Shown: positions 29,372 through 30,169 of the stretch, in pieces
Layout: each line of letters opens with the position of its first letter
How positions within the stretch are numbered: the first letter of the stretch is position 1
IMG/VR virus record: IMGVR_UViG_3300050503_000206
DNA length: 64,000 nucleotides
Strand: one strand, 5' to 3'
DNA from: an uncultured virus (IMG/VR IMGVR_UViG_3300050503_000206)
Taxonomy: Duplodnaviria > Heunggongvirae > Uroviricota > Caudoviricetes
Program-made: the position numbers and the translations under genes
Notes under the pieces: generated by a model
What the model saw: only the letters and a program-made list of their open reading frames with translations
What the model was told of the DNA's origin: nothing
The model's database searches: none

Positions 29372-29408
29372 GGCCCTGCCTCCGGTTCACGACTCCGAAG
29401 GCAGGGCC
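29372..29408 (-). terminator. Stem-loop between convergent genes (pilin terminator)
   Basis: GGCCCTGCCT...AGGCAGGGCC 10-bp stem, followed on the - strand by GCTTTGCGTT. Confidence 0.6.
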
Positions 29409-29445
29409 CATCGCCCGCGCAAGAAAGGGAACGCGGGCGAACCTG

Positions 29446-30099
29446 TTACTCCACCTCTTGATCGATGTACAAGCCCGCAGCCGCGTTGACGCCGTTCTGA
29501 TCCGCCGCGCCAGCACGCTCGTACGTCGAGAACGTGCCGTCGTCGTCGAGATCGGCGAACGCCGTCGCGGTGAACTGGCACGTTCCGAAGCCCGGCGTGG
29601 TGTTCTCCGAGATGTAGCGGTAGTGGAAGTAGTGCGCCTGTTCCATCTGGAAGTTCAGGCTGTTCCACATCGGATCTCCGCTCCACAGCGTCATGTCGTA
29701 GTAGCCCGCGGCCGCGCCACCGATCGCCGGAACGCAGTGGCCGCCGGGACCGACGTTGCAGTTCGTCGCGAGATCGGGCGTCGGACCGGCCATGCCGCCG
29801 GTGTTCTGGTTCGGCGGATGCGGACACCGATGCGAGGCCGCGTTCGCGACCGTGCCGCCGGCTCCGATCGTCAGCACCTGTCCGCGATCGACATGCTCTT
29901 CGTTGAAGTAGGCCGCGCTCGAGTCGAAGAGCTTCGCGAGGTTCACACGCGCCTCGGAGGTCTTTGACCTTCTCATATATTTCGTGAGTGCCGGGATCGC
30001 GATCGCGGCGAGGATGCCCAAGATGGCAACCACGATCATGATTTCGATGAGAGTGAAGCCGCGTTGCGAGCGGCGCCTGTACAGTGCTTGGATGTTCAT
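29446..30099 (-). CDS. pilA: Type IVa major pilin, myxobacterial PilA-like
   Basis: Basic leader, [23 protein letters not shown] with E5, [12 protein letters not shown]-terminal [13 protein letters not shown]. Confidence 0.92.
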
Positions 30100-30152
30100 C
30101 GTCTACCTTTCGTGCGGCGCACGGCCGCGTTGTTGCGCAGGGGTCCACGGAG

Positions 30153-30169
30153 AGCACGGAGCGTGCCCG
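30153..30169 (-). promoter_or_regulatory. Sigma54 (-24/-12) promoter of the pilin gene
   Basis: - strand CGGGCACGCTCCGTGCT = GG-CAC-N7-GC with exact GG-N10-GC spacing, ~55 nt upstream of the ATG. Confidence 0.65.

Follow-up and report, generated by a model that had tools for sequence, protein, structure and literature searches.

A PilA-type pilin gene with host-like sigma-54 promoter architecture on a phage-like element of Nannocystaceae

How is a pilin that travels on a virus expressed in a host with pilins of its own, and what might the carrier gain from it? We take up these questions for a 64,000-nucleotide (nt) stretch of DNA from an uncultured virus (IMG/VR record IMGVR_UViG_3300050503_000206; the whole stretch is hereafter called the window), in which a single type IV prepilin gene is framed by a putative sigma-54 promoter on one side and terminator-like hairpins on the other. 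An initial annotation had read this locus as a virus-borne pilin moron that feeds an alternative pilin into the host pilA regulatory circuit. Here, we compare the gene, its upstream region, and its surroundings with those of host pilin genes, and propose that a mobile element of Nannocystaceae (Myxococcota), most likely a large temperate phage, carries a complete PilA-type pilin expression cassette that alters the pili of its host, an explanation that we consider moderately probable.

Virus-borne pilins, including PilA-like ones, are already in print. Recent reports describe three settings: the minor pilin FimU of Pseudomonas prophages and the pilins of an archaeal virus, both studied by experiment, and PilA-like proteins of Xylella prophages and some phages. 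The prophage FimU (P-FimU) enters the host pilus and blocks tip-binding phages (Sztanko et al., Cell Rep 2026, PMC12952977), and the same report describes Xylella prophage PilA-like proteins (P-PilA) that are ~50% identical to host PilA, as well as four PilA-like groups in phage genomes, with pilus incorporation and a block of phage adsorption as the proposed role, tested there for FimU and not for PilA. In archaea, the pleolipovirus SNJ2 captured its PilA1-2 pilins from the host and, having no machine of its own, relies on host PilB/PilC to secrete them; pili made of these pilins predominate and act as the receptor of a second virus (Cell Rep 2025, PMC12426801). How a virus gets its pilins expressed in step with the host ones, or above them, is a question that this study leaves open.

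What is new at the present locus is host promoter architecture travelling with the gene, and the sequence thereby offers an answer to the expression question: the gene comes along with a replica of the sigma-54 promoter and activator-site layout of host pilin genes. The locus also adds Myxococcota, a phylum whose social motility and matrix production are driven by pili, to the groups in which such pilins are seen, and the open-access full-text literature yielded no case of a pilin borne by a myxophage or other myxobacterial virus. Further, the pilin provides a Nannocystaceae host assignment for an otherwise unclassifiable 64-kb element and, as a by-product, a candidate activator-binding motif and the arrangement of the pilin operon in a myxobacterial family that has been little studied. 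Neither the host nor the element is in culture, which is the chief limitation.

The pilin and its host lineage

The gene lies on the minus strand (29446..30099, ATG start) and encodes a prepilin of 217 amino acids (aa) of a PilA-type family of Nannocystaceae, made up of a 14-aa leader (30058..30099, minus strand), with a predicted prepilin-peptidase cut after G14, and a 203-aa mature protein. The leader is short and basic and ends in Gly, a feature of type IVa (T4a) PilA-type prepilins, and the class III signal of type IV pilins is present (Gly-1, Phe+1, and Glu+5, i.e., G14 followed by F15 T L I E19), together with a hydrophobic N-terminal helix. The translation matches Pfam N_methyl (E 6.8e-11) and TIGR02532 (E 5.9e-10), and its GC content at third codon positions (GC3, 0.83) is similar to that of the adjoining genes. 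In an alignment of 57 family sequences, the window pilin retains 71 of the 71 invariant columns, including G14, F15, E19, and four cysteines (Cys 92, 114, 122, and 174) that are invariant in all 57. The initial annotation had called the prepilin intact, and these matches and retained columns bear it out. It had also reported no other pilus gene in the window, which holds: a six-frame prepilin-motif scan revealed no second prepilin, and profile scans of 92 window open reading frames (ORFs; 74 + 18) matched no pilus-machine, prepilin-peptidase, sigma-54, or sigma-54-activator family.

The relatives of the pilin identify its host. More than 5000 were found, with the best at 90% identity and the best 120 nearly full length and 65-90% identical; the few that are named belong to Paraliomyxa, Nannocystaceae, and Myxococcota, and two genome loci with 61-68% identity come under the title uncultured Nannocystaceae. 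Among 73 species genomes of the Nannocystaceae family, 63 hold a pilin match at E <= 1e-20, mostly two or more each, with 60-75% identity over residues 7-217. An order-level search returned the same 73 genomes and nothing closer than 75%. The same genomes encode Peptidase_A24 (66/73) and Sigma54_DBD (67/73) domains. From these matches, the host can be firmly assigned to Nannocystaceae, which narrows the myxobacterial host for which the pilin had been named the best clue in the window.

Host loci from Nannocystaceae-family genomes (series L096-L107 and L206-L245) reveal how the related genes are arranged. In 8 of 12 loci fetched, the pilin best matching that of the window (class A) is the second of two, and the first (class B) directly follows a regulator with Response_reg, Sigma54_activat, and HTH_8 domains wherever the contig extends that far. 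Downstream of the pair come a conserved 275-290-aa gene of unknown family and then a Ser/Thr kinase (carrying a PEGA domain in 7 of 8 cases), while a methyltransferase-domain gene lies on the regulator's other side in 4 of 8 pilR-linked loci, that side having been scanned only in these. Either of the two operon pilins may be the major fibre subunit.

To place the window pilin among these genes, 91 distinct pilins were taken from 67 loci, and a quick IQ-TREE run was made with all 83 rows outside class B (25 of them metagenome proteins) and 6 of the 30 class B rows as outgroup, leaving out three Sorangium rows (L087). The window pilin pairs with the relative P0001 (91% identity; Shimodaira-Hasegawa-like approximate likelihood ratio test, SH-aLRT, 96), and both fall inside an 8-row clade (SH-aLRT 97) together with P0003, P0004, P0005, and P0012, which have the canonical leader and are 79-82% identical to the window pilin. 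The comparison with host PilA phylogeny that the initial annotation had proposed is thus made, and since the pilin is nested among canonical-leader pilins of class A, the tree indicates that it descends from the host core pilin lineage.

The leader itself differs from that of class A (MFLDIQRLKKxRG) and is common to five variants, i.e., the window pilin (= P0121), P0001, P0122, P0123, and P0010, which are 78-91% identical, all full length and intact, and keep the invariant residues. Relative to the nearest canonical pilins, the window pilin differs in the leader and in the variable segments of the family; none of the substitutions falls in residues 15-51, and each comparison shows one to three in residues 52-64.

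How this family relates to the well-known PilA of Myxococcus xanthus is less straightforward, and the following results weigh against a simple PilA label. The best solved relative by sequence is M. xanthus PilA (8TJ2), with a match limited to residues 15-69 (8TJ2 residue 1 aligning with query residue 15), and the NCBIfam model NF041775 (typeIV_PilA_Myxo) scored 70.4 bits over residues 12-68 and did not reach its 400-bit cut-off. The predicted structure is mediocre (predicted local distance difference test, pLDDT, 65.7); searches with this model gave no Foldseek match at E <= 0.001, the top rows being pilins at E 0.1-0.5, and no VIA-align match at Z >= 5 (Z <= 3.9). Host class A pilins score against NF041775 as low as the window pilin and in the same pattern (69.8 bits), and therefore, judged by these scores, the two form a Nannocystaceae family separate from the Myxococcus-type PilA equivalog, with a globular domain that is not that of M. 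xanthus PilA (70 vs 400 bits; 8TJ2 match confined to residues 15-69).

Promoter architecture shared with host pilin genes

Upstream of the pilin lies a sigma-54 type -24/-12 element (GG-N10-GC; 30153..30167, minus strand), GGCACGCTCCGTGC(T) / GGCACGCTCCGTGCT, found by pattern match. The element ends 54 nt ahead of the start codon (ATG at 30099), in agreement with the GG-N10-GC site that had been noted about 55 nt upstream and that reads 30167..30153 along the gene. The sequence GGGCACGCTCCGTGCT departs from TGGCACG-N4-TTGCW by 2 mismatches, keeps the GG and GC doublets 10 nt apart, and fits the consensus of host class B pilin promoters, TGGCACG-N4-GTGCT. A GAAAGG ribosome-binding site (30106..30111, minus strand) follows, and GAAAGG also precedes the starts of host class A pilins. 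Farther upstream are two inverted repeats found by motif match, both putative activator sites on the minus strand and both 40-77 nt upstream of the -24 element: repeat 1, GTGACGtttttCGGCAC (30228..30244), which overlaps the stop codon of a small upstream ORF and is as a 17-mer letter-identical to one upstream of a host pilin operon promoter (L241), and repeat 2, GTGACGgcgtagatCGTCAC (30207..30226).

Within the window, the sigma-54 match taken alone is at chance level, which counts against giving it weight by itself. The consensus at 2 mismatches was found 5 times vs 9.4 expected, a looser regular expression 2 times vs 1.25 expected, and GGCACG-N5-TGCT 2 times vs 0.25 expected; a sigma-54 match combined with an activator-type repeat <=150 nt upstream arose in 3 of 200 whole-window shuffles. 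The other GGCACG-N5-TGCT site (48611-48625, plus strand), which has no activator-type repeat within 150 nt, and two repeat-like palindromes (33945-33962 and 47216-47233), which have no sigma-54 site nearby, were treated as chance occurrences. Because the consensus by itself is not enriched in the window, real support comes from comparative conservation.

For that comparison, the regular expression GGCAnG-N5-TGCW was counted within 330 nt upstream of the mature-protein start, with identical mature sequences counted once, L087 dropped, and class B and stand-alone rows with <330 nt upstream dropped. The motif is present before 22 of 28 class B (first-in-operon) pilins (reverse-strand control, 0/28) and 22 of 26 stand-alone paralogues with the window included, or 21 of 25 for host genes only (reverse-strand control, 1/26), vs 145 of 5000 random 330-nt segments of host loci, and before none of the 32 class A genes that sit behind a class B gene (reverse-strand control, 0/32). 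The repeat motif GTG[AC]C[AG]-N5-[CT]G[GT]C, scored within 170 nt upstream of those host sigma-54 promoters that have >=170 nt, precedes 20 of 22 class B and 20 of 21 stand-alone promoters vs 218 of 5000 random segments. Both patterns were written after viewing these same upstream regions, which makes the enrichments somewhat circular and tells against taking them at face value. Even so, the comparison makes the sigma-54 motif in the window credible.

No sigma-54 site precedes the closest host genes, those of class A, and the element copy thus represents the stand-alone arrangement rather than a duplicate of the host pilA locus. Host stand-alone paralogues (for example L212, L227, L229, L208, and L214) share with it the family, a non-canonical leader, GGCACG-N5-TGCT, and upstream GTGAC-type repeats, and those of two further host clades have a conserved GATCATTGtcGaTTTT between the repeats and a CGGCAAG-N4-cTGCA promoter. 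The difference lies in the surroundings: host paralogues have ordinary chromosomal genes around them (6 of 6 annotated contexts, with no flanking integrase or phage-type family; genes for MsrB, glyoxalase, DNA ligase, Mur ligase, SurE, and aldehyde dehydrogenase are among them), whereas the genes around the window copy are element-specific or of phage type.

In M. xanthus, pilA belongs to a pilS-pilR-pilA circuit and its transcription is sigma-54-dependent. The Nannocystaceae loci are alike in that a sigma-54 response regulator stands directly upstream of the pilins and that GG-N10-GC promoters precede pilins, and they differ in having the regulator followed by two pilins, with the methyltransferase-domain gene on its other side in 4/8 loci. 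The regulator is called PilR-like from position and domain architecture, because it matched only generic NtrC-family models, all below their cut-offs, which weighs against a firm PilR label; the scanned flanking genes of host pilin loci included no histidine-kinase family match. The idea that the cassette plugs into the host pilA circuit thus gains strong comparative support from the shared sigma-54 element and repeats, and from a core locus behind a sigma-54 response regulator, with two amendments: the cassette does not duplicate the host pilA locus, and the regulator resembles PilR by position and domains only.

On the other side of the gene, folding predicted two terminator-like hairpins where the initial annotation had one 10-bp stem, such that the terminator-like structure stands and its count does not. 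Hairpin 1 (29411..29440, minus strand) has a 9-10 bp stem (arms 29411-29419/29432-29440), and hairpin 2 (29372..29408) a 14-bp stem with one mismatch (arms 29372-29385/29395-29408); the latter sits between convergent genes and folds on the plus strand too. Together they reach -51.4 kcal/mol (z -4.7), and 0 of 200 shuffles were as good. Judging by sequence signals only, the pilin would therefore have its own promoter-like and terminator-like signals, as in a phage moron. Against a fully autonomous unit, no terminator separates the upstream genes from the pilin, so that read-through transcription is possible. Moron in the strict sense is not established either: no related element with the same flanks was found in IMG/VR, GenBank phages, or host genomes, and hence none without the pilin to compare.

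Neighbouring genes and possible roles of the pilin

The pilin closes a series of minus-strand genes that begins with an Acb2/Tad1-hairpin-domain protein of a phage anti-defence sponge family (33193..33630; PF24729 E 2.1e-12, phrog_1454 E 3.6e-17), a candidate sponge for host immune nucleotide signals. It is followed by a probable lipoprotein of 396 aa with a Cys-rich C-terminus, as read from its translation (31946..33136; no family match in profile scans), a Mom-like DNA modification protein (31082..31876; PF25680 E 9.3e-28, phrog_1384 E 1.4e-33) with counterparts in 2 of the 73 host-family genomes, and an element-specific 170-aa gene (30501..31013), for which a search of 5.8 billion proteins revealed no more than 9 relatives, with no counterpart in the 73 genomes. 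Between this gene and the pilin, an 87-aa ORF (30241..30504, GC3 0.84) has a start that overlaps the preceding stop (ATGA), as in translational coupling, and encodes what we read as a lipoprotein-type signal (lipobox LLLVSAC) with a Cys-rich mature part; profile scans gave it no family. Converging on the pilin from the plus strand is a 221-aa orphan gene (28697..29362) that found nothing but itself among the 5.8 billion proteins, preceded by a DUF2786/DUF7168 phage-type protein (27966..28733, plus strand; profile match, phrog_421). Taken together, the neighbours appear to be element genes foreign to host genomes. A small plus-strand ORF (27422-27982) contains an HExxH motif and a weak, below-cut-off match to matrixin-type metalloproteases (PF00413, E 7.6e-05).

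Such a setting bears on whether the pilin might be a recent passenger, i.e., a host cassette that entered the element through illegitimate recombination and serves no maintained function there. The cassette does resemble a host stand-alone paralogue taken whole, an orphan gene lies downstream, and none of the relatives found conserves the region. Nevertheless, we consider this very improbable, given that no copy closer than 75% exists in the 73 host genomes and that the distinct-leader lineage comprises at least five intact variants at 78-91% identity. A hint of long linkage may be added: P0127, a 60%-identical homologue of the 170-aa protein, lies on a 9,013-bp contig of the same source and size as that of the pilin P0010, which suggests, as a hint only, that the two share one contig.

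Under the explanation that we favour, the host sigma-54 holoenzyme and the PilR-like regulator of the host pilin operon would transcribe the element pilin under host-pilin signals, the host prepilin peptidase would cut its leader after G14, and the near host-identical N-terminal helix would admit it into the host pilus fibre, where the divergent globular part would alter the fibre surface. The pay-off would most likely be receptor masking or superinfection exclusion directed at pilus-binding phages, with altered adhesion or motility as the alternative. We favour the former because the pilin sits in a run of conflict and envelope genes (Acb2/Tad1-like, Mom-like, and the two lipoprotein-like ORFs), and by analogy with the prophage FimU and PilA-like proteins of PMC12952977, together with the substitution pattern. 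Two points weigh on the other side: transcription, start site, sigma-54 dependence, and processing of the element pilin are predictions from DNA, and a sequence-run search found no RNA run that contains the stretch.

What the window pilin has in common with P-FimU and P-PilA of Pseudomonas and Xylella phages is that the carrier encodes its own version of a structural protein of the host type IV pilus, which would depend on the host machine. The window pilin differs in its host phylum, Myxococcota, in being nearer to host pilins (up to 83%), and in coming with a host-type sigma-54 promoter and activator repeats, which the accessible portions of PMC12952977 do not describe; also, P-FimU was tested experimentally there, whereas the window pilin is known from its sequence alone. 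With SNJ2 it shares a pilin of host descent and the lack of an own machine in the element (PMC12426801). That system is archaeal, with two pilins and a demonstrated function, while the present one is bacterial, with one pilin read from sequence and a host promoter architecture in view.

Instead of changing the fibre surface, the pilin could act on the inner-membrane pilin pool or on regulation, as an assembly poison, through sensor-kinase feedback, or by competing for the activator. Host pilin expression, along with signalling that depends on pili, such as exopolysaccharide production, would thereby be reduced or supplanted. Pilins are sensed by PilS in Pseudomonas. An N-terminal helix almost identical to that of host pilins and two activator-type repeats in the cassette would suit such a role, and the authors of PMC12952977 suggest that assembly block may be possible for the pilin-type proteins there. 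In addition, deletion of pilA in M. xanthus raised the yield of phage Mx1 ~10-fold, ascribed by the authors to matrix (PMC8080016), and pilin status can therefore matter for phage spread without pili as the receptor. A pure poison or decoy, however, would need neither the whole conserved globular domain, with its four cysteines and 71 invariant columns, nor a leader-variant lineage that stays full length, and we regard this account as rather unlikely.

Another thought is lysogenic conversion to the benefit of the host, with the pilin serving adhesion, social motility, predation, or biofilm in the rhizosphere and with no phage-phage role. The DNA is indeed found in rhizosphere metagenomes, host genomes keep several differently wired pilin paralogues, and in SNJ2, pili built from the viral pilins predominate and favour both biofilm formation and motility (PMC12426801). 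The conflict genes immediately next to the pilin, Acb2/Tad1-like and Mom-like, speak against it, and we hold it to be quite unlikely.

The favoured cassette can be extended in a more speculative direction, which we put forward as doubtful. Given that the cassette brings a sigma-54 promoter of host type along with two activator sites, the element pilin could be induced by host-pilus signals, and as a regulatory and structural mimic that competes for the activator and for pilin-sensing feedback, it might bring about a wholesale 'pilus serotype conversion' of the lysogen; the distinct-leader pilins, in five variants, would then represent a long-lived virus-borne lineage co-evolving with pilus-binding phages. 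If so, both phage susceptibility and pilus-dependent cell-cell behaviour of a social, predatory myxobacterium would change.

The carrier

Whether the pilin and its neighbours truly belong together depends first on the assembly. The stretch is present in rhizosphere metagenome runs, two of which each contain a 73,203-bp contig that is identical over 22000-38000, though these two may be the source data. Two other samples, at 3-4x depth, provided short contigs that are 100% identical across 29163-29661, 29251-29749, and 29851-30300; the first two span the neighbour gene, the hairpins, and the pilin 3' end, and the third the pilin 5' end, the promoter, and the repeats. Because contigs from two other samples cross both ends of the pilin gene, the chimeric assembly that the initial annotation had allowed for is unlikely and was rejected.

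Beyond the genes around the pilin, profile matches identified a tyrosine integrase (17957-19267), an HNH endonuclease (55149-55778), and a HerA/FtsK-type ATPase (14620-16392), which matches a PHROG terminase large subunit (E 1.8e-20); HerA and AAA families match it too, and it is therefore at most a candidate terminase. A tRNA scan located tRNA-Phe (GAA; 45310-45385, minus strand) adjoining a 377-aa gene. Other window genes encode two helix-turn-helix (HTH) proteins, an insertion sequence (IS)-type DDE transposase 3 kb from the pilin, an RpoD-like sigma factor, a radical SAM protein, an RNase H-like protein, ASCH, DUF5131, and DUF4326 proteins, an N6/N4 DNA methylase, and M23 and SLT lysin domains. 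Phage-type genes flank both the pilin and the integrase on either side, and no housekeeping family was matched in the 92 scanned ORFs.

From this gene content, the carrier is very probably a mobile element of some kind and likely a phage. The findings that pull the other way are mostly absences. Pfam and PHROGs profiles recognised no capsid, portal, tail, or typical terminase gene in the 64 kb; PHROGs matches at E up to 1 for 30 further ORFs added no virion gene, and a single match to a 'virion structural protein' PHROG family (E 0.0074 over 40 residues) was discounted. Searching IMG/VR with the pilin returned only three N-terminal-helix matches, and with the 572-aa protein described below or a 9-sequence alignment of the 170-aa family no match; GenBank phages had no DNA or protein match to the locus, the pilin, or the 572-aa protein. 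For these reasons, i.e., no recognised virion genes and no relatives in phage collections, the carrier could also be another kind of element or an island. The virus-borne part of the initial annotation is accordingly likely and not established: the context is phage-like and free of host genes, while virion genes were not recognised and a relative in phage collections was not found. Nor was context to be had elsewhere: a metagenome scan with the pilin yielded short contigs and N-terminal matches only, the ESM Atlas gave no usable match for two large ORFs without family, and a contig sharing the Mom-like gene (G059:C567) has two genes in common with the window and no pilin in the first 20,000 of its 36,054 bp, the portion in which the Mom-like gene lies.

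The lack of recognised virion genes would also suit a window that is host chromosome, as a genomic island or decayed prophage, with the pilin as one more chromosomal stand-alone paralogue. Several host stand-alone paralogues have the same promoter architecture in ordinary chromosomal settings, a transposase of IS type lies near the pilin, an identical pilin is found on a 172,251-bp contig, and a pair of 502-aa and 572-aa genes (53-59 kb) recurs in 9 of the 73 host genomes, up to six times in one. A chromosomal segment would, however, sit poorly with the lack of any housekeeping family in 92 ORFs, the phage-type genes on either side of pilin and integrase, the absence or near absence of the 170-aa and Mom-like genes from host genomes, and an Acb2/Tad1-like protein and HNH endonuclease typical of phages. 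We therefore judge a chromosomal origin unlikely and retain the mobile element, probably a temperate phage, as the carrier.

Three further features of the window were observed. Between two small HTH genes (23571-23786 and 24095-24322), the segment 23827-24038 holds five to six ~22-nt palindromic units (CGTGTCyCkTTGAAGGGACACG) and looks like the operator array of an immunity or switch region. The two proteins of no known family mentioned above, 572 aa (53497-55215) and 502 aa (57579-59087), are both encoded on the minus strand with the HNH gene between them; in host genomes, their genes form an adjacent pair without other window genes. Finally, an exact 21-nt repeat, GACGCGGCGAGGAGCTGCGGA, occurs on the minus strand at 31030-31050 and 31881-31901, just upstream of the starts of the 170-aa and Mom-like genes (2 found vs 0.02 expected). 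Further copies were seen elsewhere on the 73-kb contig and on another contig, 44 kb long and similar in depth. The repeat may serve as a promoter or leader specific to the element, and may also hint at a genome larger than the window.

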